From contig NC_135250.1 of NCBI RefSeq assembly GCF_964204865.1, positions 6,758,001 to 6,822,000 of the forward strand: a stretch of DNA of 64,000 nt, written 5' to 3'. Both the position numbers and the translations under genes were made by a program. Under the pieces are notes generated by a model. The model was not told the DNA's origin. It searched no databases and saw only the letters and a program-made list of their open reading frames with translations. Source of the DNA: Styela clava (lineage: Eukaryota). Shown here one piece after another: positions 285-27,500 of this stretch (position 1 is the stretch's first letter; the number at the start of each line of letters is the position of its first letter).

Positions 285-323
285 AAAAGTTACCGGTATA
301 TTTTAAACAGATAACAAAGTTAC

Positions 324-527
324 CTTTAGTTGTTCAATATTAATGTCCTTGAATGCATGTGGATCCTGCCATCCTACATTGATTGGAAACTTTGATCGTA
401 GACTTACTGCACCATGCAGTAAACATATGTTGTGTAAACAAGGAAGATATTCAGGCCGAGTGGAAGTGGTGAAGATGTCTGCATCGACAACGGTGGAGAA
501 AAATCGAAGCAGATTGTCTTTCATTCC
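324..527 (-). CDS. DHC exon 89 (AAA6 lid); gene continues past window start
   Basis: GMKDNLLRFF...LHNICLLHGAVSLRSKFP..GW. Confidence 0.93.
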
Positions 528-3500
528 CTAGATAGAGGAGAAGTTTATTTAGACTAGAAATTATGGAAAATTGAAAAAATAAGGATAAAAACACGTAAAA
601 TTTTTGCAAATAATTGTGGAATAAAAGAGGCATGTGCTTGTTTGCACGTAGAAGAAAAGCTTGTAATAGAAAAAAGTCATCCACTCTTTCTCACGAGTAC
701 GAAAATATAGGAAGGTATTAACCTCATCGAAAACAAAAAAATGGGGTACATCATATGACTTAAACATCTCATCAGCTTTCCCCTCCCACGAGATAAATAC
801 AAAAATAGCAAGTACATACACCACACAATATTTTATAAGCTAGTTTTTTGACTCAAAATCAACAAATAGGTTTTCTGTATAAATGACTTTATCTAATATC
901 ATCTTGATAACTGGGAACTAACAAGACCAAACAAACATTTTAACACAGCACAAGAAAAAAGTTATATTCTGATGGAGATCAAAGCATATAAGGTGACCGA
1001 ATCGTATGAAAATCCATACCTCATACAATATTAATAAAATCTTTTTATTTAACATTACCTTGGGGTGATCAATCACAAGCTTTATAGATGTATGTAACAA
1101 TGGGTCAGGAAGAGCATTGGCTCTTGCTGAACAAGATAAAAACAATCGGAAGTTTGCATGAGCATCTCTGCTTGATCCGTGACTCGTAAGTGATGATGCA
1201 TTGTTGTTACTTTGTGATACAATCGAGTAAACGGTGTTTAGAAGATTCTTGTTAAGTTGGACATTGTGCAAAAGTAGCCACGTTCCCTTGAAATAGATTT
1301 AAACAATATTAATGTAAGGCAATTTTTTAACAAAACAGATTTTTTTAACATTTTTTTATGAAGTTCAAATTGGTAATGATACGAGACAACAAAAAGGTTT
1401 TGTTACAAATCCTCTCATATAATTAGTTAGCAGTTTAGTTCAGGCATAAAAGCATTATAACGATACAATTTTCTTATAAAGTGTTCTCTCATCCACACTC
1501 CAAGGCTCTGTGCAAGCATTGATACAGATAGAGCTGAACTGGAATTTTCCTGAGAGATTTTTGAACTATGACACCAGCATAATTCTTCCCAATGCTCTGT
1601 AAACTAGTTTTGCTTTAGTTTAATCTGGATGTGCAAGTAATTCCAATCCTTTTGCATTGCAAGCTTATACCTGAGTCCGATTTATTATCTATACCTATGA
1701 TGTTACAATGCCCTAACAGCTAGCTTGTGCGAAGTGAACAACGCATGTAATAAGCTCAATTCTTGAAATTACTAGAAAGCCTATGTTAAATAAAAGTGTG
1801 GTAATTAACAAATTCGAATTGTTCATTCTGTGACACAAGTTTGGACGACGACTTTTTTGTATGTCGAAGGTCATTGTATTTCATGTTAGATACTCACATT
1901 ATCCATTGCATTAGAAAGTCCAGTTCGAACTTTCTTTTCTTCTGATGATCCTTCGCCCACGAATTCAATCACTTGTAATTTGATTTCATTGTTTGATTCA
2001 ACTTGTTTTTTCATGTAGTCATGTATAGAGTTGTTTTCTGAGAAAAAAGTTAGTCAAAATTGTAAAAAAACGAATCCCAGAGTAATAAATTGGGTGAAAC
2101 TTGCGCCACAGAATTTTTTGTGCAATAAAAGTGGGCCACAAAGAAAAAAGTTAAGAACCCCAGTAAAGAGTCTGTTACGTAATCAACAGCCTTGTTCGAA
2201 GTAAAATTGTGAAGACGACCACAGAAATTTCTATGCTGTGTTGAATACCGGTAATCTTTTTATTTTTGAAAGAAAGAATAGTACAATCAGTTGAAATAAT
2301 AATAAATATTTCTCACCATTTGTGAACAATAGTATTATAGGCGTGTTTGGATCACTTTGCCGTACAGCAGTCGCAATATCAGGAGGTTCATCTCTTATGT
2401 ATTTTTTACCAAGAACAGATATTACAAATTCTGTAGAAGCTTGCACAATACGATCCGAACGTATCCCTCTGAAATAGAAAAATATGTTTGAAAATGGAGG
2501 AAGTAAAAAATAAAACTAAATCTATTACTGAAATTAGTGCTTTCTACAGATATAAATGGTTACCTAGTTTTTTGGGTCGACAGATACAGGCACTTAGGAG
2601 GTATCTATACTCGGCGGTTGTCATTAAGAATATGCTTGCCATTGCTCTTCAGTTTACACTGCGTGACTTCGCAGGTTCGAATCATGTGCGATAGGATTGC
2701 TGGACTCATCACCATCATAGGGAAATAGATAACTAATCAACAATTCCCATGCTATGGTTAGCCATATGATTAGGCCATCTCAATGACTTTCCTCTCTCTT
2801 TATAAGAATATCCTATCGTAAAAGAATATGTCGACCTCCAAAGCCCTGTTATTGTATTATATCAATTACGCCAGTGTGTGTTTAACATACAGAAACCTTA
2901 ACTAATAAAAATTACCATTCTCACAAATCTACTAGCATCATAGCAAAGAAAAAACTGAACTCTAAAATTTAGGAGATAAAAGTTACAATAATTTACCTTA
3001 TCACCAGTAATCTCTGAAGAGGTGTGTAATGAGTATCAGCATTATCAGGTAATCTGTTCTTGTTGGTTTGTTCTGGTGAATCAGCCTCGCATAAAACCCT
3101 CCATTGCATTTCACGTCCTTCTTTCGGCATTCGATCAAACGAGTCGTAGAACCAATCATAGTACATTCCCAACACCTACGGTAGTTCCAAAAAAATATTA
3201 CCGGTAATGTGAACTATGTTTTCGTTTTGTAAGAATTGTCTATTTTCGCAAATTTATCATATTCAGTTTTGGCAACATACAGTGCTGGGATGGCTCTATT
3301 CATCAAATTAGCTAAAGTTGGACTGGAGTCACTATCTATCAAAAACTCGAAGTGACCCGTGTTATTGAAATAAAATAACCTGGACTCATACTCAATTAAA
3401 CTCCAGTGAGACTTAACTCAGCGATTGATGCGACTCCAGACACGGATAATTTGTGACTTGAGACTTATGATTCTACTTTTTCGAAGAAAGTTTGCAATAA

Positions 3501-6500
3501 GTAATAAAATTACGATATATTTCAATTTATTCGATTCACATAAATTACGATTTTATTGAAAGTGTTAAATTTTTGATAGAATACTTATATAAATCATTTA
3601 AATTATTCAAAAAGACAAATTCCTTTCAACCAGAAGTATCATTTTACCTGAACGTTATGAAATTGTTCTTCACTCATCCAATCGAATATCTTCTTCGCTT
3701 GTGATCTTGTTTCCGATGGATGATGTCCTAATGCCGACATCAATGCTCCTCCATACGATGGAGCAATTAAGTATTCTCGTTCGCCAATGTTGACATTTCC
3801 TTTAAAACGAAAATTAGGTTTGACAAAGGATAATATAGGATTTTCATATTCACATTGTTCAAAGCGAAAAAAGTGAATAGGCTTCATAAAAAAAAAAATT
3901 TTCAATGTCTATATTATGAAAATTTCTCTTATATTATATATATTCTATTTTTTTTGGTAAAACAATACATTTTCATCAATGAACAATTTTCTACCGACCT
4001 AAAGAATCTTCAACTTCTAATGCCGTCATCAGACTAAATATATGGCGATCCTTCTCCAGTAATGACTTAGAAATCGTAGAAAAGATATTGTAAGTCATTT
4101 GGTTGCAGACAGCTTTCAATGATGATCTCTCTGATTGACGAATGTTTTCATCATACAATCTGAAAAATTCAAATTTGGCAGAATATTAGCACTTGAAAAT
4201 CATTGGTTTATTGCTGTATAATGGAAATTTTTTACAAATTATTCGCGAACCCCATGAATCTCTGCCAGCTTGTATAATACAGTGGATTGACAATTGACAT
4301 GCTCGTTACAGTTTGATAAAGAACGGATCCACGAATTGCAATCTCAGTGAAGCCTTCCTTCGCTCGTTCAATTGATTCCTCTGCATTTGCGATCTTTGTT
4401 TGCCTGGAATAGAACAGAAAATTGGCATTCTAAGTTAGAATTGTGTCAGATTTAAATTGGTTTAAAACAAGAACTCAAACAAAATTCTGAGAAACTAAAA
4501 AAGATAATGAAATTATTTCAATTAGTTCGAACTTCCATATACTCAATTCCTGCAAAAAATTTATTATAATTTTGGTAAATAGGTTAAGTAATTGAAATCA
4601 ATTGTTTGACTGAATTACATTTTTTCAGATTGGTACTAATTTTACCAATAGCCAACATGGAGCAATATATCATTATCAAAATTAACAACTTCAATTAGTT
4701 TTGAAATAAAATATCAGATTAAAAATGTTTGAATAATGCTTAGTGACATGCCAATCAAGTGTCACAGCTTTATTTTCTGCTTTGGTTAGTTCATAAGCCA
4801 ACGCATGGCTCGGCGGTGTGGGGCATTGTGCTAAGCGTTAGGAGTACGCTCACCACCACACTTCCCTGCCGGGGGCCGCAGGTGTGAAACTCATGCAGGG
4901 TTAATTATGTGCAAGAGGTTTGCTGGACACCTTGCTGCCGTAGGGTGGTTCACGTAACCGCTGGCTGATTATGGCTTCCTCAACCATCAGGTCCATGCTT
5001 CCAAATAAAAACAAATAACTGGCTAACTAATTCCATACCCGACATGGACTGGTAACAGGACGATAGGCTGTGGTTCGCCATTAGATTAAGCCGTCCTATA
5101 AGCTTACCTTTCTCCCGAGATAAATATGTGAATCCTATCCCACCTCTACCAGGATATAATTAAATTAGGTGCGCCAAGTCAAAGCAAAAATGATTTCGCT
5201 CTATAATCCTGCGCATAAGTTGCTGTTTGTATGTACCCTTGTTTCAGGTTATTTAAAAAAAAGTACTAAATGAAATATTGTCTATGTTACAAGTTAGAAA
5301 TCTCTTATTCTAGTCTTGTTTAGCATACAGATTGAAATGATCATTTCAGTTAGTAAGATATTCTAGTTGCGTCACAAGTTATTATCTTACATTTCCATTG
5401 CGTCATCATAGTTTTTCTTAATCTCAGTCAATTTGTGTGTCACATTCAAATCGTTCAGTAATCTATGTCCACCGACTAAAATATCTTTCAGTTGATTTTG
5501 TAATTCTGCAAGAACTTTCATATTTCTCGACTTTTCGATCTGCATGTTCGTCCATTCATCTCGAAGTCGTGGCTTTTCATGCCTCATGAATCTTAGAATA
5601 TGTAAACAAAATCTTATCAAAATGATAAAATATAGGAATAGATAAAACTGAAAGATACTCTCACCAAAATAGATAAATGATAACAAGAGATCAATTTTAT
5701 AGATAAGAAGATGATGATAGAATAAAATTTGCTCACCGCATCACTGATTACTCAAAATTAGTCAATATTATATTTTTCAACCAGTTAAAATCAGTTAAAA
5801 ATTATTATAAATTTTAACACACAGTTTGAACTGGGGAAGAGAATCTGCAGGGAACCACAGTTGGTTATAGAGCAGCAACACTCATGGTCTAATAACTAAC
5901 CAAGATTGAAAGTCTGGGTTTAAGGTTATGAAGATATTGATGGTTCACATGAAATGTTTTCATCATAAATACATCGACCATACTGGCCAAGCATGACTGA
6001 AATATTGTGATTAGATTAATACCTGTCTAGTAGTTCAGTTTTAATTCCATCTCTTGTGGTTTGATTGTACAACAGAGTGGTATAGGCAGCAAGTTCTGGT
6101 GGGACATGTTGTGGTAAACTCGTGGTGTGAAGGAACATTCGGAAATTTGGATTACATTCAACTTCATGATCACCAACCTGAAATAAATGATAAGATGAGG
6201 TGTTGTCGGGTATGGATAGATAAAGGTAGGGAGACATTGCTCAGTCGTCAATAGGTCTTACATTTGGGAATAAAAAGTTGGGTCTCTAGAATTGGTAACA
6301 ATTTAATTGTTAGTTATCAACCTTAGATTCGCACATCAAAATCATGTAGGTATGATTATGTGTAAAAGAATGCTTGACCTCAAGTCCAGCAAGGTGACTC
6401 CATGAACCATTTTTATTCATTAGGAAACATTGAACTATTTAGATTATATGTCAGCAAATTTCAGGAGGTCGGATTATTTTGAAAAAAGACATTGCTTTAT

Positions 6501-9500
6501 CCTGATCCCTTACCATCATTTTGAAAGGAGTGTTTCCTTTTAGGAAAGCTGATCTACATCTGAACAGCTGATGAAATCTATCATCACGAGCGAGTGCTTC
6601 AACATCACAGTATGTGACAAGAAGAATTTGTCCCTCACTCAAACTTGTTTCAAATTGAGAACGTAGATCCTGCATGAAAGATATAACGAGAACACAGAAA
6701 AAATGTTAGGATATTAATGTGTAAGAACATATATAAAAAATGAAGAAGAAAAAATACAGCCCCCCCCCCCTTTTATATAATATCCTACCAGGGCATAAAA
6801 ATTGTGTAGCGCATGATAGAATCGAAGATTCTAGGCTACGTGACTCATGGTCTTATGCAAAGAAAAAATGGAAGGCTTCATGAAAATACCATGAGAAATA
6901 ATTCAGACTACTGTAAAAAATTTGTCAATATTGAGATCTGAATATTTATAATGTGATGGTGTGTTAATATTTTATGACATGTAAACATCAAATAAAAATC
7001 ATTTTCTAGTAAACGTTTGAAATCTTTCTCAAGGAGATTTCTGTAAAAATAAACACTTACCCGGTACAAAACTTGTACAAGATGTGGCGTCGGTTCTTCT
7101 GGGACATCATCATGATTTTCTTTGCTCATATCTGGTGAGAAATATCCATTTATCCAATCAACAATTTTGGTTGTTGGGTCGCAAATCAAACACCATGTCA
7201 TATTGCTTTCCATCGCAGCCAGAACACAAGCATTTTCAAGTGATTGGTTATCTGTTGGTAGTTTCTTCATTCTAATTGACTGAACTTCTGTAGGCTCAAA
7301 AATGAATTCCTGCAATCTGGAAAATTAAAGGTAATGCATAAAGAGTAATGTAATGTTAAAGCCAATCGTTGATGAGGAAGTTTCAAATGCTGTTCTGAGG
7401 GACACTCATATGCAGAAGGATTGTCGAACAAATTGCCTCTTACATTGAATAGAATTGGTAGTCAATAAGCAGTTGTCCAATATATGTTTATTATCTTCCT
7501 ATGATATGGTACCTCCCTATGACTGGCTTGTATAAGGCCCTGTTGTGTGTGAATCCTTATATATCATAAATTACCAGCATAAATCAGCGTATTACCTGTA
7601 ATTGGTGAATAGCATCTTGTGTGGCAACGGAAGTTCGTAATGTTTGCAAACATGGGTATAGAACGACACCATACGTCTTCTTGCGTCGATTGTCATTCCT
7701 CCGCAATATGTTTGAAATGCTGCGGCAAGAATGCAGTTTGTCAAAACTTGTTCAACTGTAACGCTTTCATCCAATTCATTCTTCCATGCATTTTCAAGAG
7801 GCTTGAGACTGAAAAATAGGGTAGATTTTTACAAATAGGTAAGATTTACATATTTTCTTTTTTTGAATATTTTTCATACAATGGTGTAGGTTCCAGCACC
7901 TACTGACTGTCAACAGAAAAAATTGGGAAAAAATACAAAAAATTTAATAGATGATGACATAAGGACTAATGTTATCATTGCGAACAAGAAAGATGGAAGG
8001 CGTCATCATCAATTAGGTCATCTCAGAACTGGCTCAGATCCATATCGTAAAAAATGGTTGTAGTATTTCTTCTCTCTGTGAATCTTTTCTTGGTAACAAT
8101 AATTTGAGTAAACAAATCAATTCTAATGTGATATTATGATATAAATGTTTGACTAGAATTGAGAAATCAGGATGAAAAGGACGAAATTTTTGTAATGGCT
8201 ACCTTTCTAATGTTGCTAGTGCAGATCTCAGTCTTTCTTTCGATGTTCGAAGTTCAGTTCTCAAATGGTGTTTTCTTACAACCGCATTGTCATATCTGAA
8301 AAAAGCAAAATTTTATAGATTATTAAAAAATTTGGCAAATTATTATTTCAATTGCCTAGAAATGTAATTAAATTTTTTCACGATTATTTATCTGATCAAA
8401 TTGGATTTTCAATAGGTTTGCTCGGAGTAAAGTTCAGAGCCTTCAACAAAAACGGTAATAGGTACTGATGGAAGAGTTGGAATAACCACTAATGCACCAC
8501 ACACTAAATATAGGTCAAAAGAAATTGGTTTGAACAAAATTTAAAATTGAAGCTTGAAACTAAAATCTATTTTATTTTTATATCATTTTATTCATTTATT
8601 TGCATAATATTGTCAAATTGTATAGAATAGAATAAAATTTCATGTGCAATATGTCACTATATTTAAAATCAGAATATATTACAGGACAAAATTCTGGAAT
8701 ACCAACTATTCTGTCATGTACAACAACCTTCTTTAGTTTGCGGACCGGTAGAATTTCAAAACTAATTTTACGGACAGGTGCACCTTTAAAATCAACTCAA
8801 GATGTCAGAAAGACAAACATGTCTAAACGAAAGTAACTGCAACAAAAGTATGCAATTCAAAAGAAGACAAATCAATTTAATGATAAGTTTGCTTCTGTCT
8901 TTTTGATATCATACATGTCAAACATGGTTCTATTGAATTCCGTGGAGCAGCGGTTGGGAACCACTGATGTACGACACTATCTAATACTTGGAGCACTTTT
9001 TTGAGTGTAGATAGAGCCACATGATAACATAAATGGTGAAGAATATCTTACTTTTCTTGTAAATCGTTGACTAAATCTGCTATTTTTTCCACGTCATCCT
9101 TTGTCAGTCCATCAATGTTAGTTTCCTTAAAAACACTGGCTGCGTCACTTACTGTATCAGATTCAGTATCATTGTCTTGGTCACTTTTTGTTTGCGGCTA
9201 TTTAAACAAAGAAGAAAGTCAAGCCAACTTTAGTCTTTCCAACAAGTAAAAAAGTCAGTTTTACACAAAATATGAAGAAAAAGGATAATCACACATTTTA
9301 ACTGGGGAAGGCGATGCGCGAGGAACCAAATATGGTTATCGAGCAGCAACACCCAATAATAAAGATTCGATAGGGAATGTCATTGAGATAGTTGGCTCAA
9401 CAGACAATATAGACTCAATCTCCTAAACAAAACAAAAACTTTGGTGCATTAAAACCTTCGTTAACAACACTTAGTAAAATTGATATTTAACTCAGCTCCG

Positions 9501-12500
9501 ACCCCGGAGGATAAATGCTAATTCCAGACTCTGATGAGGGTCTTTGAATTGTTATTACAATTTGAAAAAATCGCTCAGTAAAATTAATGTTTTTTGAGAT
9601 TAAGTCATTGTAAGTTATTGAGTAAGTTTTAGCTTCTTTTATCATCATTGAAACTCTGCATTTCCGACAAATTCAAATTTTGAAAATATGGTTTTGACCC
9701 CTGAAGATACATGCTAATTTCAGACTCGAGTTATGACCTTTGAACTGTTATTACAACTTGAAATCTAAATAAGATCTCATTGTCCATTTTAATAGGTAAA
9801 AAAACGTTAACATTTTAAATTTTTACCTTTTGATCATCAATTTCAGATCGTTTTAATTGTTCCAGTTCAGCTTCCAAACCGTTCACTTTATCAGTTGCTG
9901 ATTTGAGCGGTCCACATAATCTTAATATAATATAGGTAGTTAAGTAATTGAAATAAAAATTGGCTGATTTGGAATTTAAATCGGATAGACGGTTGGCGCA
10001 TTGTACTAAGTGTTAGGAATACTCTTGACATCACACATCTGATTACAATGCCAGAATCCAAAAGATAATTGCGTGTGATATTATTGCTGCGCTCATCGCC
10101 AGCCGCCACTAGGTGGATCATGCTACCGCTGGTCAGTTTTGGCTTCCTCTACTACATTAGTTCATGCATCTGAAACAATAAACTGATTAAATATCCCCAT
10201 ATCTGACATGGATTCCCAATTAAATAATAGGCAGTTTGCAACATGATTAAACCGTTATATTGGCTTTTCTCTTCCAAAGATAAATATGTCAATCCTATCA
10301 TATACACTTGAATAAATGTCTTATATTTGACATACATTGTATATTCAACAATACTGATAACAAACTCAACCAGGACTGCCGCGTCTTCGCTACTATATCT
10401 TGCTGATGATATTGTTATTCCAGTCACTAATAAGGAAATAAGATAACAAAGATAGAATTAGAACAATTTAATAATTATATTCCAATAATTAAATGAAAGA
10501 GAAATAAATACTTGACATTTTTTTTCCAATTTTATCTAAAATTTAATTTAATCAGTAGATAGTTTTTAAGCCAATATGGACAATAAATGATGGATATATG
10601 ATTTGACACTTTTTCTTATGATGTTTCCACGTCTTTGTTCCCACTAATATACAAGAAGCTACAGTTTTGAGGATGAACATTTTTTTCGGTTCGGCCTTGT
10701 TTACTAAATTTATTACATTCTGGGTGAGGGAGGGACAGGGTATGTAAACCAATGATATTTAATGCCAACATAGTAAAAAGTCTAACGCTTTACCCACTAG
10801 AAACTTACTGTTAGGTTTCCTTTGTTGTCCCTGAACGGAAGTTGTATGTTCAAGCAATGACCCTTCACCTGTGACCCCTTCTTGACCCTCCTTGCCTTTC
10901 TTCAAATAAGACTCAACTTCAGTAAGAAGAGATGGTTCAAGTCCAGTTTCCCAGTTCACCCTGCATGATAACAGACAATATTTGATCCCCAATTTTCGGG
11001 ATACATTTTTTATTTTATACCATTTAAATGTGTGATTAAAAATTTATTTGAAAATATATTTGTTGATACTTACGCATGGATCATTTCAACAAATCTGACG
11101 GTATCATTCATAAAATTTTGCATGCTCTTCCATTTATTTCTATCAGCTGCTGATAAACCTTCTGATTTTGCATTCGATGCCGCTGCATAGAATAAGTATG
11201 TAATTAACAATTCCCAAATTTATAATATATTGTATATATGTAAAAATTCACTTTTACTAAATGTCATAGGATAGATAGATAATGATTTATATCCGAATAT
11301 TAAGTACACATTGCATAAAAAAACAATGATCATAAAATATAAACGAAAGGGGACGAGCAAGGTCAACGGGGTAGACTGACCCATGAGTTTACATTTATGT
11401 CAAAGGAAAACAAAGCATATAAGACCGTATTATCTTATGGCTCGAAGGTTAGCACATCATGCATCGAGCCATCGCACCCTTCGCAGGTTTGAATCGAGTT
11501 GGTGATGGGATAATTAGATGCAATTGGTTTTCTGGTCAGTTACGGCTTCCTGGGAAGGTAACAGGACATGAGGCCATGGTTCACCAGATGATTAAGTCGT
11601 CTTATTGGCTTTTTTCCCCCAGGATATATATGAAAATTCTATCTTTGTTCTTTTACCAAATGTGCTCTGCCTTCTTCCTTTTGCTTTCACTTTCCTTGTT
11701 GTTCGCAGAGTACTGCCCGATGAAACTCTTGATTCCACTGGTTCAGTGGTGTGTTCTCTGCGTCCGTTTTTAGGTGTCTTTGTTTCTGAACCCCGAGTAC
11801 CCATTTGTGATTGCTGATCGGGTCTCGTACTTAAATAAGGATTTGCACCCACAAGAACCATAACCATTTCAAGAACCTAAGAAAAAATAGAAAAATTTGG
11901 GGTATATATAAAATGAAGACAAAGTAAATAAAATTTGTGTAATTATATTTTGAAGATTTCAGAAGTGTTTCGTTTCTTTTATTCTTCTGTGAGTTGATAA
12001 CCTATTATTGAAGTATTCCTTGAATTTATCTAAATTATGCGACTGAAATTAGAAAAAAAAAACATTTAAAATAAGCACAAATTATTAGGTATTTGTTTGC
12101 TATGAAACTTAAATAAATCACAAAACATTAGCTCCATTAAAAATTGCAATTGAAAAACAATACTATTTTGCTTTAATATACTTACAGCATACACTTCCAA
12201 TACATGTAATACAGAGCAATTGCTCTTGTTTACAATGTTGTTGTTGTTTTTATAAAAAATTGGTCTCATTTGCAACTAATGATATAATCAAAGCAGGATT
12301 ATGATAACAACATAACAGTTAATTCTGTCTGTTAACCAATCATACCTGTGCAACAAGTACAGGTGGATTCTGAAATTTTTTGAGTCGTTCAATGCATCCT
12401 CTGTCTACTTTATTTCTCCACATTTCAACTTGAGCTTTAGCAGATGTCAAATTCGAAGTTGCTTCATCCAATTCTTTCCTAAAATTTGTTAAATAGCTAT

Positions 12501-15500
12501 GTTTCATTCCGGAAAGTGGGTGCCAATAATATCAGATTCATGAAGTCTATATACAAAGTTCTTCTGCTTTTCAGAGTTATGGTTCCCACCTAAGCAAAAC
12601 TAATTTACAGTATAGGTATATGTTCAAAAAATTAGGAGTAAATAATGATTTTGGTCAAATATTTGAAAATTTAATAAAATGATCTAAGTTTTATTAACTG
12701 ATCTTTTGATTTATCAGACTTTTGTTTAATCCTTTTGTCCAATCCCCTTACCTAGCTTCCACCAAGTCCTCGTCGATTTGCATTCTTTTTGATTTGAGAT
12801 TGGCTTCCATCATTTGTTCAAACAATTCATCATATTCATCTCTTTCTTCATGCAGTAGTAAAGTGTCATCATCAAACTCATCCTCGTCATCTTGTTGTAG
12901 TTGCTAAAATTTGAAATGTGTTAGAATGTTTTGCTTTTTGTGAGCGACAATATTGAGGAAATATTAGTATTGTATATGTTATCACTGCCAGGGCTATAGA
13001 GATAGTTTACTTTATGCCTACTACCTTGTTCTCGGTAGGCAGTTTTTTTTCTAAAAAAATAAGAACTCTCAAAATATCAGCGGCTGCTTCTACAGTGCCT
13101 TTTTCGGAGTGAAAATCATAAAAAAGGGTTGTATAAAATATATTAATATGAATCTATATCCCAGTTCACAACAAACTATCACTGGATCACTGAATTTTTT
13201 ATATTTTCAACTTATAAATGGGGATATTGAAAGTATATTCATAACAACTGTAAAAACACAATAAACATATTGTTTTCTCAACTTTCTGCAATGATTCAGG
13301 AACATTTTAGATCAGTTTTGACATATTTACGAGTTGAACAATTGAATATTCATGTATATTTTTTCTATACTGTATCCAGAAAATAATTTGTCTAATTATG
13401 AACATGCATGCTATAAAAGAATGTCGGCCTTGAAAAAAAAATTTTTTGTTGTGGTGATGATCTTACCTGTAAAAATGCAATCAAAGGTCCGTTTCCGATT
13501 CCGAGATGAGCTTTCAATTTTTCAAGTCTTGTAGCTTCAATAGTTAATTTTGTGAAAAGTTCTTTCACTTTGATTTGTGCAGAGGAGAATTGATTTTTCA
13601 ATACCTGAACACAAATATATCAATTTTTTTGTCTGTTTTTCAGTGTGATCTAATGAATGTTATCATAATCTAGCAAATTCTGATGGCTGGTGATCAGCAT
13701 AAATTCCATTTAAATGTCAGAGAGAGAGTAATAGATAAAGCTACATAAGCATAAATATTAGTGTTGTGTTTGGTTTTGAGGTGCCTGTATTAACATTCAA
13801 GATTGAAGTTTTGTAATTGTGAAAATTTTAGATAAGGTTAAAAAATTTTCAGAAAGGAAAAATGACAAGTAAAAGCAAAGAAATACTTGTCATCAATGAA
13901 AAGAAACAAAAATTTAATATGATAGCAAAAACAATATTCACCCCAATTGCTTTTTGCATTAGTCTTGCATCTTTGCGAGTTTCATCCAAAGTATCAAGTG
14001 CATGTTGTAATCGACCTGTCTCTCGTCTCAACTTTTCACTCGCGGCATTGTAAAGTGTGTGTAAACAATGCATAAATTTCCGATAAGTGTAAGGACCAAT
14101 GTAAATCTCATTCGCTGCACTGTTTTTGAAATCCCTTTGAAGTTAAAAGTACAATAATAAGGTTGGGGTGACCAAAATATTACTCAACATGAGTCACATT
14201 TTACAGTAACGCAACTTGAGTATGTTTTAAATAATTTTGAAACCAGCTTTTCGCATGAACTTTGACCTGAGGGCTTGGAATGACTTGATTTAACTTGAAT
14301 CAAGTTGCAAATAGAGAACTCCCAGTGAAACAGTGTTCGAATTGGCGTATTTGATGAAAATATCTAGAATCATCCTTATCCGACTTGGTGAATTGGCTTC
14401 ATTAATAAGTAAGTCCAATAGATTAGAATTCGGAATATGTTTAACGAATCAAAATCATGATTAATTACAGTTTTTAATCCCAGAAAACTTCTTTTTTAAA
14501 TTTTTATAACGTCTCTATTCACCTATGCAGTAAGTTAATCCTTTCCAGTAATATAGTTTTTGAGTAAGGTAGATTTGGTAGATCATATTTCTCAACTTTT
14601 ATTGTTTCCTTGTCTTTCTTCGTCTGCAAACTTGTACCAGTAACAGAAACTGTGGGATTGGTATCACCGCTCCATAATGTTTGTTTACAGTCACGAAGAG
14701 TCAAACTGAAATAAGAGAAGTTTTATGAAAGTTAGGTATGACATGATAAAATGTGTAACAAGTTATAATCCAGTGGTTCTTTAACTTTTATTATTCCTTT
14801 CAAAGACTCTTTTGCTCTTGGAAAAAATACCTAGATTTCCTTCAACGATTCTCCACCAGTTATTTTGTTCAACACAATAAAAAAGCGAACAGAAGAAAAT
14901 GAAAGAATAAATGCAATAATCCGCAAATAGCAGTTAATTCAATCCAGTCATTGTGAATGGCTCTTGCTCAGTGCGTCCAGAGAATGACTTCGCGGCCCCT
15001 TAGAAGGGTCAATGGTCGGTCCACTTTGAGAAACCCTGTCATACTGCCCTGTTGTTTATGGGCAGTAAGTTTTTGGAAGACTATAAATATTGAATTTTTT
15101 TATCATTCACAAGAAACTACATTGATTGTTTTTAAAATAGAAATATGATCCATACCTGTGAATGTTTGCAATTGCCATTGTAAGATATTCTCTAGTCTTT
15201 GAACTTGCTTCTTTTGCCACATTTTCATTGTTGATGAAGAATTCAGCTTGTTGAATCAATACTTCCTGAGGCCAATCTCGAATCCAGATAATCTATTTCA
15301 AATTTCAAAAATTTATTGAAAAATCAACTGGCATACAATGATTATTCGATCAGTGGCAAGCAATTTACCGTTATACTCTCGCTAGGATGTCCAACTTAAA
15401 ATTTTAATTTCAGAAATTTGTCATTATTTTGAATTTCGAGTAATCTAAAAAGCCATTTTTTGCCACAAAATACCATTCGATTTCTGAAACAAAATTAAAA

Positions 15501-18500
15501 GCATTTTATTGCAAAAATGACAAATTCAGAATGCCGGAATAAAAAAAATTGTCAAAAAATTATGAATATCCTTTCATATTTAAATTTTGTTATAACATTA
15601 GCCCCCAGTTAATTTTTTGCCTTTGAAAATTATATTTTTTGAATAAAAAAATAAAACATATGTAAAACAAACTTCGAATGATTATTTTTAATTTGTAATT
15701 AAATAATTGGTAATTGAATAAAATTAATTATATTCTTGATCTTTGTTACTAACCTGTGTTTCGGAGACAATTCCTGGATAAGCTTGTGATGCATCTCTCA
15801 ATAGTTTGTGATTAGGTGGAAGATTGAGTACAATATGAAGATTACATTTGACTCGGGAAACAAAAAATTTCATCGGATCTGACATCATATTTGGATGGCT
15901 TCGTCTTAAGATTGGTGCAAGAACCTGAATTACATAATTAGACTTGACTATATTGGCTTCGCAGGTTACACATCATAGGTTCAAATCTGATGTCTACTGT
16001 TCCTCCCAAAAATATTAGCTCTTCACAAATCGTTAGAGACCAGTGTTTTTTTCGGAGGGTAAGACGTAAGGTAAAGAGCATGTATAAAAAAACTCGAATA
16101 ATAGGACAAAATATTAGGATGTCAGCGTTTTATGAAAAATTTGAGATAATGAAAAAAAGTTCTATAAATGACTTAAATATTCAGATAAATTTGTTGAAGA
16201 ATGATCTAAAGAACAATGAGTAAATTCATGTCATGATATAGAACAAAGAGGTTTGGGTACTCCCGTAGTGTGTGTACCAGGTTAGGGTTAGGCCATAATT
16301 TTATTCTGATTTTCCTTATTTTAGTTCTATTACGAGTTCGGGGACTGTCTGTGTTAGCCAAGTGAATAAACCCCCTGCCCATAGGTTTCATTCCCTTTAC
16401 ACAACTTGATGTAGAGTAGGCGAACAAAATTAGTTCCTCCAGATTGGACACATACTTCTGGAGCGCCAAATTTAGACTTCAAAAAGTTGAATAAGTTTTA
16501 TTTAAAAACTTGATAAACAATAATGAAAGAGAATAAAAATAGATTATATTTCTGTCACAGAAAAAATTACAGTATTGCTTTGTAGACTAACAGCACTTGC
16601 CAAAGCACACAATGAAGATTTATTTTTCAGGGAAAGATTTGCTTAATGATATTTTAAATAAAAGATTTCATCATGCATTATATTTAATCACATCAAACCG
16701 ATTTGGCTTATTGTTTCAAAAAATATACTGTAATATTGTTATACTTAAACGCTGGCATGATGGAATTATTATCAAGCTTTGCATGAGTCTTTCATAGGTA
16801 GAGAACTACAGAAATTGTCGAAGGTAGAAGCATCCCAATTCTACATAGTTCATCTAATTTACTACTCTAGGTGAGGTTGTGAAAGTGATCACCTTGAACA
16901 ATGAACCAATCAGGGCTCAAGCACAAGATCTTAGGACTATTATCTGCCTATTAAAATGCCAAAATAAAAAAGTTTGCATATAAAGTGATAACCATTGAAA
17001 CAGAATCTGAAAGAGTAAAATGGGTCAAATACTAGATGCTAAAATGTTCATATCTCGAGTAAGGCTAGAAATGATGTCTTTAATCAGATCACAATTGCTT
17101 ACAGGATAGTTATCAACCAATTTCCACTTGTAATAAATAACCTTGAAATATCAATTTCAAAAATTTTGTTTATATATATTCATACCTTGACATACAATTG
17201 ACTGATCATAAATAATTTTGATTGAAAGCTAAATCTATTTTAAAATGTTAGTATAGCTAATAAATCAGTTTTTCAAATTAGATATAGATGATCAATTTGA
17301 GTGATTTTGAATGAAAACAAATATATTGCAAAGAATCAATAAATTTTGCTACTGATCATAACTTTTTCAAAAATAATCAAGCCAGGTGTATGTAGGTTGT
17401 ATAATTAACATAAATCTTCTAATATATATTGATTAGTTTTCTTTATATGAATTTTCTTGTTATGATGGTATTAATTGCAAGATGCAAAATTTGAGGTTCT
17501 TGCCTCCTATGTATTGTTAATTACTTGATGACCAATAAATAAAGTAGAACAATATGAAGAATATGAACGTTGAACATGCATTTGCAATTTACACTGCTGA
17601 ACAGCTGTGTAGTGTGTAAGTTTGAATCCTGAATATTTATGTTTGATACTACACCACATATTAATGCAAAGCTTTAATGTTTGATAAATAATAATGTGAA
17701 TATGGTACATAATTTTGAATCAATGTTTTAAACTAACTCTCTAACTCTCTCCTTCTAACTTTTATAAAAATTTATCAAAAATATGACAAAGTACACAATA
17801 GTCGAATCAAACTGCTCTCATCTTTTTGATAAATGTTAATACATTGAAAAATTCATTATAATTATTTCTTTCGCTGATAAATACAACATATATCTCGAAA
17901 ATACAATGACGACCGTGGTAAATATTGCAAAATATAGCATATTTGTATTCTATAGGTCAAGGGTGAGCAATTACTTTTCTGAGTGGGCCAGTTACAGATA
18001 ATAGACTTGGTTACTGGGCTGGAGACTCAAAACTCAATATGAAAAACTATCAATAAGAACAACAGCTAGGCTAACATTTTTATAATAATAAAAAGCACAA
18101 TGTAACAATCGAGGTCATTATGACATTTTTTTCATCTATATTTCCATCAGACATCAATATCAATAAAAACTATAGTCATAATTTTAGCAGACACAAGTGG
18201 GCCAGATGAAACATTTCGATGAGATCCGGCCCACGGGCCCTATTTTGCCCACCCTTGCTATATCTTATAGATTCGCCAGCATTTGTTCATATCACTATTA
18301 ATAAATGCTAGCTTTATGCCTGCGTCAAGTCAAGTTAGTTATGTTATAAAATAATTGCATATAGCTTAAGCAGTACCTATATCAAAAAAGCATTTGTTTC
18401 AGCTGTTATGCAATTCGAAAAATCATGGTTTTAGCATTTGATTTTGCATTACAAATAATAGTTTTCTGTTAAAAAGCATCATTACATTGGTATTGTTACC

Positions 18501-21500
18501 TGATCTGGATCGTTGCGATATTGTTCCAATATATACTAAAAATGGCGAATGACATCAAAAACTTGTAAATTAGGAAATGCTGTTTGAGTGAAAGTTAAAG
18601 TTTAGGCAAATTATAGCCACAATCTTTTCTAGTTTTTTAAAAAATGTCTGAAAAGATCATCAAAAACCAGACTAAAAAGATGTGAGTAAAAAATGAGATA
18701 TTGCATAGATTACTTAATTTTGAAAATTGTCTCCGTATAAATAGTCAACCCATACAGTCATAACGCTATTGTCTGTATGGTATAGAATACTGCTTAAATG
18801 CTAATGAAAAATTTTATCAAATATAAGAATGTCAATTGTTGATATTGTGATCATATGACACCTTATTTCATATAAATCACTTGGATTGTAATATAAGGGC
18901 TTAACAGTTGACTCACTTAGATAAGAATTATAAATCATATATTTATTGTCGTCACTCATGACTTTCTCACCTAAGTTGAGCTAGTTAATGAATCTCACTC
19001 TCTAACCAGTGCCAATGGGTCGTGATATATTTATTATTTTTTATTTTACGTGGCCTTACTAGGTCTAGGTCCCTTTTCACACAGGATGAACATAGAAATT
19101 TTCCTAATCTGAATGAGACGACATGGTTAAAAACTCTCAAATATTCTTGAATGAAAAACTGAAAGTATAATGTTGTTGGTATGATATGAAACAGAAAACA
19201 TCAAAGAAATACCTCGAGTGTAAACTGCTGGTAATGTACCTACCTGGAGTAGACCTTCAATTTCATCATTAGAAAATAGATGTGGATATTCACCAGCTAT
19301 GAGAAGACTGTTTATGGCATCAAGAAACGAAGGATCGTATAAATCTCTGGAAAATAAAATGAAGCATATGTTACATAAAGTCATATAAATTATTAATTCA
19401 ACGCTGAAATGGGGCAAATCAAACAGAATTGTATAAACTACTGTATAGATTTCATGGTCTCAATTTTTTACAGTAAAAACCCTCTTCAGTAGACTGCCAG
19501 TACACAAGAACCAATGTTATTTATAAATTAAAGTTCTTTTTGGATATTGTTTTTTTTTAATTTCGTAATTAAACTTTCATAGAGAAGACATTCGGAGACT
19601 GCAGCGCTGCAAGATGATTTGAAAATGCAACAGGGTTTAGAGGTCGATCAAAAAGTCGAACATTGCTCACCATTGCACATATCATGTTCACATAACCCAA
19701 TAGTAATGGTTTAGTGACCCTTTGAAATAACCAGAAAGGCTTCTTGAAAAAAAAAACAGAAACATTTTCTGAAATTGACAAGACGTACAGTGCGTGAATA
19801 AGGATTGCAAGCAAATAAAACAGTATACCTTGCTGTCAGTACCACAACCACAGGTACACCTTCTGTTCCTGCTATTCTAACAGCAGTTCTAAGACTGTCG
19901 AAAAACGTAGCAGGTCTTGATGCATCCACTTTAAAAGGTTGCAATCCAGCGACATGTAGGGCAAGTTTCGTTAGATTCGATAAATGTGATCCGACAGCAC
20001 CAACCACAGTCATACTTCCACTGAAAATTGAGTGAATAACAAAAAAAAAGATTTTTATTTGGTATCTTATAGCATAGCAATTCCTGCATAAGCAATTATC
20101 ACTTTCATAAAATATTTTATTTTTTGTTTTTCCCAGTTTAAAGTGTATGTAGTTATGTCAATTGCTTGCTTGTATCATAGTTTGACAATATTTAACTCTT
20201 TGAACCCTGAAAGCCGCTAAACCGGCTTTCCCGAGAAAGTCTTCTGACGCTGAAAGCCGGTTTAGCGGCTTTCGCATCCCGTAAGAGGTATGCAACTTTG
20301 AAACCTCATATCTCGCGAACCATTCATTATATTTAGACAAGTTTTACATCGTGTGAGAGATAACCTACAGGACTAAGTATAATTTCAAAATTGAGATAAA
20401 ATATTGTGATCATCTTATGAAAATTGGCAAAATTAAAAAGCATAAAAAACTTCTAAAAATTGCTCAAATCTAATTGACAAAACTTAAATTTGTTTACGAT
20501 TAAACCTAGTACATTATCGACAAAATTTGTAGAATTTGAAGATAGCTTTCCAGTGATACCATTAGATTGAACTTATGTTGCACCATTCAAATTTTAGAAG
20601 CATTTTTATTCGTGATTTTGTTTGTCGCAAGATCGAGGCGACGTCAAGGTGACGTAAATAACAACCTAACACATTTACGCCGTTACGCAGCGACGTTAAG
20701 CAATTACGTTGGCACGTAGCACGTTTACGTTTCATACGAGAAACACTTTTCCTCGCATGCTCGTAACGTCATTTACTTAAGTTCGTACTCGTGAAGCGAC
20801 TTACGACTTGTAAACGATACACGGGGAAATTTACGCATTACATCGGTTCGACTAAAACACACAATACGCAGTGTTATTGCCGTTTTAATTGCATAAAGAT
20901 ATGAAAAATAAGAATAGCCAAAATAAGGATTTTTAAAAACAGAATGATGGAACATATCGATGGATGCATTGTTTAGCGCCATTGCTGAGTTTTATTGTGC
21001 AATATTTTCTTTTTCCGATATATGAATACTATCCAATATTCCATCTGGACAAAGCTTTCGTTTAAAATCCATTGTAAATATAGCGATATCAGGAATGTAG
21101 CGTATATGCAGTAATTTCGAAAATCTAATGAGGCTGCAAAATGTAAAACACTGACCAGGTGAGCTACTGGTGCCACCATGTCTTCCGTGTACCCGTTATT
21201 ATTTTTTTTTTTATTCAATCTTCATGATATCCAACGGTGAATAATTAGCCTTGATGTTTCCGGCGGAACCTCATAAATTCATGAGGATCAAATATTTCGT
21301 TTTGGCCATTCATTTTCGTCCCATATCCAAATAGTAAACGTATATAAAATGGCCTTTATATTCTAGCAATTTTACTATGTTCGATCAAAATTCGTCTGAA
21401 AGGGTTTTATCTGCGGCCGAGGATATGATACTAATGCAATGAAGCCACAATCTGCACTCAAGCTGTGAACGACCAGATGTGCAATTGCGCAATATACCTC

Positions 21501-24500
21501 ACGCAAAGAGTTACGCACGATACGTCGCATGAACGTTATCACGACAATGTCGTCGTCGCCCTTTGCGTCCTTAGCAAACTTGGCGTCAAATAGTTGATAA
21601 ATTTTGTTTGCAAACCATTTGAATCGATAGTACAAATTCTGCAATAAAATGAGTTATGCGTATGTTAAGAAAGTCATACGTATATTCTCCGAAAGGTAAT
21701 TTTGTATACTTTTCAAAATTGTACTTATATTGATGATACATTTCTAAGAAATGTATTAAATATTACCAAAATACAAAAAAATAGTAGATGGGGCTACAAA
21801 TAGGCTTACACATCTCATCAAAACATCTCGTGAAAAATAATGCCAGTTAAAAATAAAAGACTAGATAAGCTTTTATATGATATATTACAGACCATCTGAT
21901 ATCTAATGGTTTAGAAGTTATTTTGATTTAAAATTAGGGATATTACAATTTTTTAACGCGTCAAATCGATGCGACGCCGTGGGAGGTCAGGGTGAGAGAG
22001 TAGCATCGTTCTGGGGATTCAGAGTTCAAAGAGTTAAAACTTATTATTGAGGCGAAGAAAGCCTTGAGAAGCCAGAGACAAAAGAAGCCACAAACCAAAT
22101 TAAAGAAAAAAAAACAGTGCAATACTACATACACATAAACCAATGTAACTACAGTAGTTGATAATCCGAAGCTTTATAAATATGTTACCTATCACATTAC
22201 TGATTGAATACCATATACCCATCTTCTCCCCAAAATAGGCATATACCATACTAAAATCTGAAAATTATAAATTCTACTAAATTCAACTTACCCATAAGAA
22301 TATGAAAGAACGCGGTGCATTCTGATAACATGGAGTAAAACATCATCACTCAACATCAGCCGAGTTATTGAATCTTGTGTTACTTGCCTATCTTCATTGT
22401 AATGGATGACATGAGCCTGAAAAGCCAAAAAATCATTTCATCATCCTTTTTTTGGCCTAAAATCTCCAATTCAGTCAGGTCAATAAGTGCACAGAATTCT
22501 TGGTATTGCAGCTAATCAGATTAAGCTAATTTAACATAACCAAGAAAGTCAATAACAGTTCAGTTAACATAGATAGTGGTTGCTTGCTTGAGCAGGTCCT
22601 GAATCCGAGATTTTAAACTTTCAGTCCACCACTGACCGAGACGAGGTCATCAGGCTTACATCAACAGGTTGATATTTGAAAATAGACAAAATCATATTAC
22701 CTGTAAATATTCATATGCTGCTCTCAATTCTGGTAATGGATAAAGTTTTACTTTGGTTGTTTCTCTTGTACTTGATGCGAGAGGTCTGTGGTGAACCTTA
22801 GCATCAACTGTAACAGAGATTTGGTATTTGAGTCCAACATCTACTCAAAGAAAGGTAACCAGAATAAAACTACTGATCTTTGACTTGAATTATGGGCGCT
22901 TGAACAAGCCCCAAAAGATGAAAAATTATAGCAGCAAATTGCTTTTTATTAAATACTGATTGACACAAGATTTAATATAATTCAGGTCAAGACAAATATG
23001 AAAACTGCTATGAGAAATCCAGCTTATACATATGCTCGGTGGTGTGGCCCATAGTGCTGAGCGTTAAGAATACGCTCGCCATCCTACCTCTGATTCGTGC
23101 GTGCGTTCGCAGGTTCGAATCTCATGCGGGGATGGTTATGTGCAAGAGGGTCGCTGGGTGGTTCACCCAACCGCTGGTCATACGGCTTCCTCCACCATTC
23201 AGTCCATTCTTGACATAGACAGGTAACCGGACGAGAGGTTGAGGTTCACCATATGATCAAGCCATCTTATTGGCCTTCCTCTCCCCCAGAATAAATATGT
23301 AAATCCCAAAAATGAACCACGTAATAACCTGCAAAGGTAGTAAAGTAGACTGGTGGAACTTCTGCATCACTTTTCCCATCTTCACCAGAACTTTGAATCG
23401 CATGACTAAAAAATTCTTTGGTAACGTTTTCAATTTCTCTTTCAAACCAGGCAAGATCAGAGGAACGACATAGTTGATCAGCAAAAAGTCGTTGCATTTC
23501 GTGTTTCCAGAATGCGACAACGTATGTTTCTGATGAACGGTTCTCCTCATCGACTCGTTTTAAACATTGACACATTTTTATAATTTGACGAAGACAGAAT
23601 GCATAATGTTGTCGGCCAGGTAGAGGACTATAAAGTATAAAAATATAAATGTTAATATAAATGTTTCGGGTTTATTTCCATGCCCACCCACCCAGGGTGT
23701 AATAAATTGGGTGGGTAACGTCAAATCAAACCCTTCATGAATAGTAGATCCCATCATATCGTTTGATATCAGTGCCTGATTGTACAGATAGAATGGAATC
23801 TTAAATAATGTAAGCAATATTCATACCTCGGTCTTAAAGCTTCCTTCAATTGTTCAAGAAGTTTACTGCAAGCTAGTGCAATTGATTCGTGAAGTTCCTG
23901 GGTTAGTGGTTTGTCAGACATGTTTGCTTCCAGCACTGAAAAAATGACATTGTGTACATCGGTTGATGACGCACTTCGAAGACGAAAAACAGCGAAATGT
24001 CGCAGCAAACGAGGATCAAGATTATTTCCAGGTGACGCAGCGTTTACAGACATTGTTGCAAGAACCTGTTAGCAAAGAACAAAAATTTTATTCAAGTGCT
24101 CATGAAAAATGAAGCCCAGGAACAAATAGTTTTATATTCTAGATTCTGCCTCGCAACTTAATCTACTTTTGATCATCCCCTTGGGAAAAATGTAGGTTAA
24201 GAGGAAGAGAGGAAAGCTGATGTGACAGCTCAATCATAATATGGCAAAACACAGCGTCTCATCCAGTTATGTCCATGTCTGGTACCAAAACAGTTTTTTG
24301 TTTCTGCTCATGAAACAAATAACTGGTTAGCTACTGTCATAAATGACATGGAATGGTAACCAGACGAGGGACAAGGTTAACCATATGATTACATCATGTT
24401 ATTGAATTTCTTATCCTCAAAGATACATATATATAATAAATTATATTCTATCCAACAGTGACTATTTTGAATAAAAATATTTCATTATTAAAAGAAAAAT

Positions 24501-27500
24501 AATAAACCCTCTGAAGCATAAAAATTATGAAATCTTTAAAACCCACCTCCAAACCTTCAACAGTTCTCCATTCAAATGGTTTATTCAGTTTACATATAGT
24601 TTGATCATCAACAAGAGAACGAAGCAATTCATTACATCTTTGTACGCCATCTATATCACATGACGGTAGATTCAAGTCATCAATGAAAGCCTGAATAGTA
24701 AAATATTGTTATCGATACAATTTCACCAACATAACTAGAAATAAACAGTTTCACGTCCCTATTCAGTAGTATGTATGTTTTTAAAGAAGTAAGACCTCAA
24801 ATGCTATATCTCGAATTAACAAAGTAGGAATAGCTGGGCCAATCCAGAAATCACATTGCCATATGTATCCGGGCATGGGATACATAAAACTTGATAATCC
24901 ATGCCAAAACAGTGAGATCAAGTTATTTTCACATACTACATAAAAGCTTGTAGAAATTCTACAAGGAAAACGGGATACTAAAATGTCTACGCATAGACAA
25001 TCATTCTATGTAACTCTCACTTGGGTATGGAAATTAAAAATTATGAACATTAATAGTTATAATACCTCTAGAAATTTCCCATCTCGTGCCCCATAAACAA
25101 ATCCTTGTCTATGTTGAATATTATGTTGCATGAAACTATGAAGTTGAGAAGCAGTTGAAGCTCGACTGAACACTAGACGTCGCAGAATACTGAATTGTTT
25201 GTCTGATAAAATTATAAAAATTATGTTATGTGGGGAAAGGTAACAATTTGAGGGCGGAGAAGTGTATCATACAGCCTGTGAAACCTAAATAGGTGGCCTA
25301 TAACAGAACGCATATTCCATTGTTTTCAAATACTTTTTCTTATTTATGCTGATACTATCAGCATTTTTGACTCTGTATAACGCCACATTAAGATGAAATT
25401 TTGTTTGGAGAGACTTCAAAAGCATACTGTCATTAAAATTTAAATTACTGCCTCTTGAAAAAAAGGATGTTAAATATATAAGAGGGAGGTTCGAATTAGG
25501 ACAAGTTCAACCTAATCAAGATTAGCTAATTATTCTTTATATAGTGAAAAAGCAGTTCAATGATTTGGTCCTCAGCTCCACTTCAATTTTACGTCTCACC
25601 CATTGCACGTTGTTCAGGGGATTGTATGCCGTCAAAAAAAAAGCGCCGGTAGAAGCAACCTTGGTCCTACCTTGAGTATCCAAAAAATCATTGACTAAAG
25701 CTGTTTTCCCGATTCCTGATTCGCCCACCACTAGAGTGTGCTTTCGAGCCATATGTGCAAAGTCAAGTAAACAACGAGTACGAATCGTATCGACAGTATC
25801 AACAAACACCTGAATATAACAAGAATGATATTTAAAAAACTCCATGTCCAAACTTTTACATGAATGCATGAAAATGTCTAAGCAGAGATGTTCATATCTG
25901 AAAAAGCTCGTAATGTTTTATTTATTGATATATATTATAGATTTTTATAAACATGAATATGAATGAAATGGTTTTCCATTGAGCTACATGAAATAGTAAA
26001 ACCAGTCAAGGTTGGTTATCAGAGCAGAAAATTTTAGGATGTTAAGCTTTTTCAGTTTTCATCATTTATTGTCAATTAACAGAGAATATTAGAATTTGCT
26101 GCTGTTATAGAGATAGTCGAAAGTTAAGCATGTGTTTGAGGACCAATCCACAAAAAAACTTTAAAACCGGTCCATAGTGTGAAAAGAGTATTGAATCCCT
26201 GTTTTAAAGGACATAAATATATGTCTCAATAATTATCTTCCTCACCTCTCCAAGCATGTCGGTTGTCCCTGTATAAGTAGCTTCAGGAACCCTAGCCATC
26301 CAAGTATCCCATTCACCTGATTCATCAACATAATAATCAAATACTGAAATATCATGGTCGTAATCTGGCAACCTAGAAAAAAGAAATATGAATATTTACT
26401 TATATATCACACATCCAGCAACCAAGCTGAACTGCTATATAATTTAGTTGCCTACATGTGCATTCCTCTATCTCAAGTTGAATATAACAATATATTCCTA
26501 CATTTGAAAAAACTTACGCAGATGACAATGTTCGAAGAAGATCACTGAATGTTTTAACAGTGTTTCCTTCCAGAAGTCCACCAAATGCCCAGACAAGACA
26601 AAACAAGTACAATCTCTCAATGTGAAGATCACCACCTGGAATTTTGAAAAAATTGTTCTTGTAGTATTTGTACTTCACGCCCAATAAATACAAGTATAAA
26701 TTCATAAAAACCAAGAAATCTCCAAGATATCTTACCAATATGTTGCTGATGCTCATTCAGCATTTCACCCAGCAATGTAAGACATGTTGTCAACAATCCA
26801 ACTTCACATACTGGAAGTTTTATCCTGGCAAAAATAAAAATAAAACAAATAGGAAACACAACAAAACCAAAATGATAATATTTATAAAAGAATTATTCTA
26901 ATTCAAGCAAGACCTTTGTATAGGCATTGTCATTGTATAACAAAATTCACAATAAAATCTACCTTTTATCATGGAAAACAAAGTTACAGACACTGTCTAA
27001 AGTTTTGTCGAATGCTTTTTCTAGAACACGTTTTTCATCAGCGTTTCTTTGTTCGAGCCAAGCTTTTGCAAGAGGACGCCAACCAAGAACGTTTTTATCC
27101 AGATAGACCAATCCCTGTAAAAATAAAAGTACAGTTGGATATGATGAGTATTAAAACACAAGGTTTACAATTACCATGTATTACAATAGTGTTATGATGC
27201 TATTATTTTATCTATTCCTCCTCAAAAAGAGTACTAAAATTCAGTCATTAGTCCTAGTCACTCACCGTACGAGACAGCAATGACGGAGACGCATTCCTCA
27301 AATCAGTTGTCTCAAATACAACTCTCATATTATCCGTGAGATAGAGTCGATCTCCATTACTCAGTTGCATGACTTTCTGATCAGATAATGCACCGTTGAG
27401 ACGATCAGCCCAAGAAGATACTAACGGACCATCAAGACAGAGCCACGTTGTACTTTGATTCTGCATAGAATAAATACATATGAATCATTAATAGGATGGA

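Follow-up and report, generated by a model that had tools for sequence, protein, structure and literature searches.

DNAHX, or dynein-X, is a non-motile dynein of sea urchin sperm described by cryo-EM in a preprint (Chai, Loustaunau, Zheng, Yang and Zhang, 2025; PMC11785096). According to the available sections of that preprint, sea urchin DNAHX holds ATP trapped in AAA1, is locked before the powerstroke and forms heterodimers and phi particles with another heavy chain, and no stalk density is seen past the crossing point. The same sections report inserts of variable length before helix H3 and at H5 in the MTBD (the domain for microtubule binding), further inserts in CC1 and CC2 of the stalk, and a stalk predicted to fold back. 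The inserts are regarded there as unconserved and microtubule binding as likely disrupted, on the basis of predicted models alone. The available text has no match for 'basic', 'phosphoryl' or 'DHC12', and uses 'proline' and 'charge' for AAA1 only, so that loop charge, loss of the CC1 proline and a conserved motif in the second insert appear not to be discussed in it. A literature search on DNAHX by name, with few subscription journals covered, found nothing beyond this preprint.

DNAHX is probably the same family as class 12 (DHC12) of Kollmar, although this equation is our own and is absent from the preprint text. Kollmar 2016 (PMC5100056) was the one relevant paper in a search of the DHC12 and class-12 literature that covered few subscription journals; its available part gives class 12 a class-3-like tail, an animal distribution and a stalk missed by family models, and describes it as having neither a typical site for microtubule binding nor coiled coils. 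The parent class, judged by tail similarity, is outer-arm class 3 (DNAH5/DNAH8 and the Chlamydomonas gamma chain), which carries a flap at the same site between H2 and H3. In the portions available of PMC8500839 and PMC10205576, H5 and the flap are both bound by LC1, which draws in the acidic tail of beta-tubulin; other dyneins have a flap that touches this tail itself, by charge (PMC8500839, in part), and the DNAH7 flap extends to the next protofilament (PMC6629372, in part).

A DNAHX gene in Styela clava

The window, by which we mean the whole 64-kb stretch of Styela clava DNA that was analysed, is filled by one minus-strand gene for a dynein heavy chain, divided into many short exons. A protein of 5416 aa labelled Styela clava by NCBI (P0086) maps to it in 76 tblastn pieces, residues 286-4931 lying at 63598-306. 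Against XP_041462850.1 (P0109), the DNAHX type sequence, P0086 scores 4511 bits at 43% identity, versus at most 1899 bits against 24 controls, and the gene is almost certainly the DNAHX orthologue. The protein has a length above 5,000 aa (above 5,200 aa as the likeness to the preprint's DNAHX is drawn), inserts before H3 and at H5, others in CC1 and CC2, an AAA4 small-domain insertion and a degenerate AAA1, which are the marks of DNAHX in the available sections of PMC11785096. It differs from the echinoderm proteins in the loop before H3 (80 aa and +10, versus 53-69 aa and +6 to +8), and from sea urchin DNAHX in having lost the Walker B Glu as well.

Homologues were collected as 99 long proteins lacking the Pfam stalk model, the 24 controls having it. 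They range over sponge, placozoan, cnidarians, molluscs, rotifers, acoels, echinoderms, tunicates, non-teleost fishes and amphibians; no named sequence from choanoflagellates, a group whose inclusion is a mark of class 12, was present in the homologue lists, and a search with the AAA2 exon among proteins of up to 2000 aa gave no match. In a motor-domain tree (FastTree only), in which another sea urchin represents XP_041462850.1, the 20 sampled sequences, from sponge to frog, form one clade with SH-like support of 100. The top PDB matches of one orthologue (P0076) are the gamma chain and DNAH5, with the best stretches in the tail, and the tail tree agrees.

The following features, all on the minus strand, cover the gene and the exons of the MTBD.

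306..63598, minus: gene for the DNAHX heavy chain, coding here for residues 286-4931 of the 5416-aa protein and extending beyond both window ends
12346..12478, minus: exon with the end of CC1 (without proline), H1, the PP motif and the start of H2; from splicing, contigs and AlphaFold2
11657..11876, minus: exon covering the last part of H2 and the greater part of the 80-aa loop; from splicing and contigs
11074..11182, minus: exon with the end of the loop, H3 and H4; from contigs and AlphaFold2
10809..10960, minus: exon with H5 and most of insert 2; from contigs and AlphaFold2
10336..10426, minus: exon with H6 and the start of CC2, including a family-specific Tyr (10397-10395) and Glu (10388-10386)
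9827..9920, minus: exon in which the CC2 proline is retained (9910-9908)

Exons 12478-12346, 11876-11657, 11182-11074, 10960-10809, 10426-10336 and 9920-9827 have AG/GT ends and in-frame joins, and the resulting model of 894 aa matches P0086 letter for letter. Immediately past H2 there is a GT in frame that is a potential donor (11849 would be the last exon base) and whose use would remove most of the loop, and the loop could on this account be a read-through intron or a partly skipped exon. Among the joints listed, however, the donor used is 11657 in spliced contigs of three of four runs (X1, X4 and X5, from two studies), which cover the loop exon and skip both flanking introns; the contigs of X6 do not cover that exon. 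These runs are available as contigs and were labelled RNA by guess; the skipped parts have intron ends. The 80-aa spacing is also kept in all three protein models of this gene, and long loops occur in homologues from sponge to frog. The contigs and protein models together rule out an artefact as the main form, and we give this explanation next to no weight. Among the sequence differences listed for the loop-coding part, six of seven are synonymous.

Within the intron that splits the loop lies a copy of an interspersed repeat (11557-11643), with further copies at about 5051-5139 and at 10234-10299. Loose-ended contigs accumulate at these copies and at 9259-9356.

Inserts of the microtubule-binding domain

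A sequence-only reading of the locus had proposed an 80-residue loop rich in S, T, R and K between H2 and H3, a second insert of about 30 residues after H5, and a stalk that lacks the CC1 proline and keeps that of CC2. It had missed that the subfamily is known, that its inserts are already in print and that its discoverers inferred loss of microtubule binding. Since family and inserts are published, the remodelled domain is not in itself a new finding; what is added here is the conserved charge of the loop, the motif of insert 2, the loss of the CC1 proline, the conservation of the core and the position of the inserts at LC1-binding elements.

11133..11846, minus: 80-aa H2-H3 (pre-H3) loop, net +10, predicted disordered, with intron 11656-11183 (474 nt) inside
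11667..11708, minus: the loop's K/R cluster, with RRQ as its end
10422..10902, minus: 33-aa insert between H5 and H6, with the conserved motif GVTGEGSLL at 10878-10852
12442..12444, minus: Ser at the canonical CC1 proline position (26 before PP), two residues after EATSNL

Between VLEMVMVLVG and WKSMQNFM lie exactly 80 aa, with 17 K+R, 7 D+E and 21 S+T; the insert after H5 has 33 aa with a net charge of +1, so that both inserts were correctly recognised. Both stalk prolines are invariant in canonical dyneins, where they have a hinge role at the MTBD (PMC4579568). The canonical CC1 proline stands 26 residues before the PP motif between H1 and H2 in 22 of 24 controls, and at that site in none of 92 DNAHX homologues. 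The loss had thus been rightly noticed and its site misplaced, for the Ser found there lies past EATSNL and not inside it. The CC2 proline is kept in 89/92, as in the window, and the two-proline hinge of canonical motile dyneins is absent from this protein.

The canonical CC1 proline is also absent from P0137, P0139 (Chromosphaera) and P0158, which have short flaps. In the tail tree P0137 and P0139, two of the 24 controls, group as sisters of DNAHX, on long branches that make this unsure. Judging from these sequences, loss of the CC1 proline may be older than the long loops, a placement that the long branches make equally unsure. Upstream of the canonical CC1 site, at a distance of seven residues, one sponge sequence (P0134) carries a proline.

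Conservation of the loop was assessed in stalk stretches extracted from 94 of the 99 homologues (five gave none), of which 92 had an intact core and two were dropped; P0158, whose tree position is unsure, is counted among the 92, and these sequences are not independent, with 27 from amphibians and 21 from bivalves and snails. Loop length is 19-88 aa (median 56) and the median charge +6. Net charge is at least +3 in 87/92, a 12-mer of at least +4 is present in 81/92, and every sequence reaches +3 in 12 of 15 lineages (85 sequences assigned), which bears out the expectation that charge would be conserved among orthologues. Not basic are the loops of the sponge (0), the placozoan (+2) and the octopus (-1 and +1), the octopus copies having degenerate inserts. 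Column identity of the loop is 0.14 (32 sequences). As an internal control, three of 23 long variable segments across the protein are consistently basic, the loop among them, so that basicity is neither the default nor unique to the loop. In charge density the DNAHX loops equal the ancestral class-3 flap, which has 19 aa and a charge of about +2, and the charge may therefore be inherited rather than newly selected.

In its full form the sequence-only reading had the tether switched by PKA through RRQS. This motif ends the basic cluster of the window loop, the loops are S/T-rich (median 22%), and RQx[T] is legible by eye in all three tunicate loops (window 11670-11660; P0081 and P0090), so that a group-specific basophilic kinase site may be retained. 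R[RK]x[ST] occurs, on the other hand, in just 7/92 loops and in neither of the two other tunicates, and in the available part of a survey of 79 axonemal heavy chains PKA-type sites are only N-terminal or in AAA5, inclusion of DNAHX not being evident there (10.1101/2025.03.10.642390). A PKA switch is accordingly dropped as a family mechanism, and we hold it to be very improbable.

Conservation of the helical core

While the loop varies, the second insert contains G[VI][TS]GE in 77/92 homologues, and GVTGEGSLL, at 0.74 identity, is in the top 4% of 9-mers (32 sequences). In the same 32 sequences column identity is 0.56 for the MTBD core, versus 0.42 for the whole protein and 0.39 for AAA1, the core being better conserved than AAA1, AAA5 and AAA6. 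We take the mouse numbering of H1 and H6, as placed on this domain by motif counting, to apply here. The basic residue after Asp in H1 is retained in 91/92 and the Trp-Lys of H3 in 90/92, and in H6 the second basic residue has become Tyr in 84/92 and a Glu has been added in 89/92. This loss and gain in H6 should lower affinity for tubulin. The mouse residue numbers are from the available part of PMC4987762.

These data bear on the preprint's reading, in which the MTBD is a relic and its inserts are tolerated disorder that blocks microtubule binding without a conserved role. The variable length and low identity of the loop, a stalk broken by inserts, a dead AAA1, the degenerate octopus inserts and the stalk-MTBD section of PMC11785096, as far as available, fit such a reading. 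The better conserved core, the recurrent motif of insert 2, the constant sign of the charge and the mostly synonymous loop variants speak against it, and on balance we think it unlikely. Our results thus disagree, in a way open to test, with the single structural study, which takes the inserts to be unconserved, whereas over the animal tree we see conservation of the charge, of one motif and of the core.

Predicted structure of the domain and stalk

An AlphaFold2 model of the window MTBD, made with an alignment of 17 sequences, predicts a six-helix core with most blocks at pLDDT > 90 and both inserts largely below 50, and its H1-H6 match the helix placement proposed from the sequence. The fold of canonical dyneins is thus present in the model, whose top matches among known structures are dynein MTBDs, at Z 15.3 (rmsd 3.7, 164 aligned), 14.9, 13.9, 13.5 (6L4P, a class-3 heavy chain) and down to 10.6; the best short-chain matches without dynein in their title reach at most Z 6.6. 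Foldseek with this model gave no match at E <= 0.001, the rows listed being nonetheless dynein or axoneme entries. PF12777 has no match in the window and is listed for none of 55 homologues. The domain is thus probably invisible to sequence models because of its inserts, and not because it is absent. In contrast to the description of class 12, with which comparison was by description only, the models (that of the limpet stalk below included) predict an intact six-helix domain on long but interrupted coils.

A phmmer search of the domain against PDB sequences returned delta-crystallin only, at E 0.13, which is a chance match, and no dynein.

12826..13469, minus: acidic insert in CC1, two exons
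9099..9847, minus: acidic insert in CC2, two exons
33087..33110, minus: AAA1 Walker A, lysine kept
32698..32715, minus: AAA1 Walker B, catalytic Glu to Asp
31375..31407, minus: AAA1 sensor II, Arg to Gln
19978..20001, minus: AAA4 P-loop without its lysine

The stalk inserts are acidic, with median charges of -13 (CC1) and -5 (CC2) in 55 homologues; CC1 spans 186 versus 141, and CC2 133 versus 97. In a whole-stalk AlphaFold2 model of the limpet orthologue (pTM 0.44) the long helices are predicted to be broken at both.

The acidic inserts may offer the basic loop an internal partner. The MTBD might have given up microtubule binding and been retained because its surface serves a protein partner. 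This could be the partner heavy chain or motor ring in the phi particle, which is folded back, or else a transport factor or the CC1 and CC2 inserts themselves, which the loop would clamp so as to keep the stalk folded. The near-invariant, family-specific residues of H6 and CC2 and the motif GVTGEGSLL, which differ from tubulin-binding dyneins, would suit such a surface, as would the heterodimers and phi particles of the preprint (PMC11785096, available sections); the CC2 insert starts about 20 residues past the CC2 proline and should be within reach of an 80-aa loop. Both AlphaFold2 models, however, give the loop and acidic inserts low confidence and suggest no ordered contact between them, and the basic H1 and H3 residues of the tubulin face are retained. 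We consider a partner surface, its clamp variant included, somewhat unlikely.

State of the motor

In AAA1 of the window protein Ser stands for the Walker A Thr, Asp for the Walker B Glu, Ala for the sensor-I Tyr and Gln for the sensor II Arg, and the complete catalytic set of a canonical motile dynein is lacking. Across the 99 homologues the Walker A lysine is kept in 97, the Walker B Glu in 40, the sensor I Asn in 36 and the sensor II Arg in five; all five catalytic residues occur together in none, versus 21 of 24 controls. The sensor II column of echinoderms and hemichordates was checked against K2393 of PMC11785096. At AAA4 the commonest P-loop forms among homologues are without lysine, and the small-domain insertion (PS2i) gives a span of 149 aa, versus 93-94 in those controls (15 of 24) where the pattern allowed a measurement. 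A dead AAA1, together with the trapped ATP seen by cryo-EM (PMC11785096, available sections), suits the earlier proposal of nucleotide-independent binding.

A putative microtubule tether

The DNAHX MTBD can be tentatively read as a weak, nucleotide-independent tether whose basic loop contacts acidic tubulin tails, a reading that we hold possible while placing it short of an even chance. In its favour are a loop charge kept in most animal lineages at low sequence identity, a well conserved core, the retained basic residues of H1 and H3, the loss of the AAA1 catalytic set and the flap contacts of other dyneins. Since AAA1 is locked, the stalk is interrupted and one of the hinge prolines is missing, the ATP cycle is likely unable to switch the affinity of the MTBD, which would be uncoupled from the ATPase ring; if no helix sliding reaches the MTBD, a strong state gated by ATP should not arise. 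Contact with alpha-tubulin would be weakened by the altered H6. Class-3 heavy chains have a flap of about 19 aa, two prolines, an acidic H5 with Glu in 19/19 sequences and an intact AAA1, all of which are altered in DNAHX. Both inserts sit at the elements that bind LC1 in this parent class, and because both contact elements carry inserts LC1 has likely been displaced; the lengthened flap might then take over its basic contact with the tubulin tail, and a long basic loop would make that contact weak and constant. The closest analogy is the flap of DNAH7 and dynein-c, also an H2-H3 insert that extends contact with the track, but this is a short beta-hairpin in an active motor (PMC6629372, in part), whereas that of DNAHX is a long, basic loop, predicted disordered, in a non-motile dynein.

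Several points count against a tether: the H6 changes, the preprint's view that microtubule binding is lost and the stalk folded back, its lack of stalk density past the crossing point, a charge that may be inherited, the non-basic loops of sponge, placozoan and octopus, the non-independence of the homologues, the acidic stalk inserts as a possible internal partner of the loop, and two other segments of the protein that are equally basic. Were the tether reading correct, we would learn from it how a motor domain can be turned into a passive, modification-sensitive microtubule clamp, and it would give a function to a dynein class retained from sponges to frogs. A wider proposal, in which DNAHX is an ATP-independent reader of the tubulin code, its own basic loop and a new conserved motif standing in for LC1, and serves motile cilia in general, beyond sperm, as a passive brake or damper, is speculative and seems to us rather unlikely.

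Distribution and other observations

DNAHX homologues are found in bdelloid rotifers, a caecilian, salamanders, a land snail and an octopus, animals in which males are absent or fertilisation is internal. Their presence fits poorly with a link between DNAHX and external fertilisation. Ciliated epidermis is found in amphibian and non-teleost fish embryos, and may be a better fit to the distribution. The link to external fertilisation was proposed in the preprint, whose available sections report DNAHX to be absent from zebrafish (PMC11785096).

Introns of the gene contain two tandem arrays, at 50597-51308 (period 29, 24.5 copies, 95% matches) and 62311-63184 (period 31, 28.4 copies, 81%). An open frame on the minus strand at 38395-38922, perhaps a retroelement fragment, includes a GMPQGS-type stretch that we take to resemble a reverse-transcriptase motif. 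Elsewhere in the genome there are weak AAA1-like matches at G000:C13:148676-461857 (repeated at least four times), G000:C4:14039018 and G000:C9:9532101-9536941, which may be further divergent dyneins, for example of classes 11 or 13. A dynein paralogue (L001, G000:C5:15088394-15093109), presumably dynein-2-like, differs from the genome's other dynein genes in lying within a single open frame of 4311 aa without introns.
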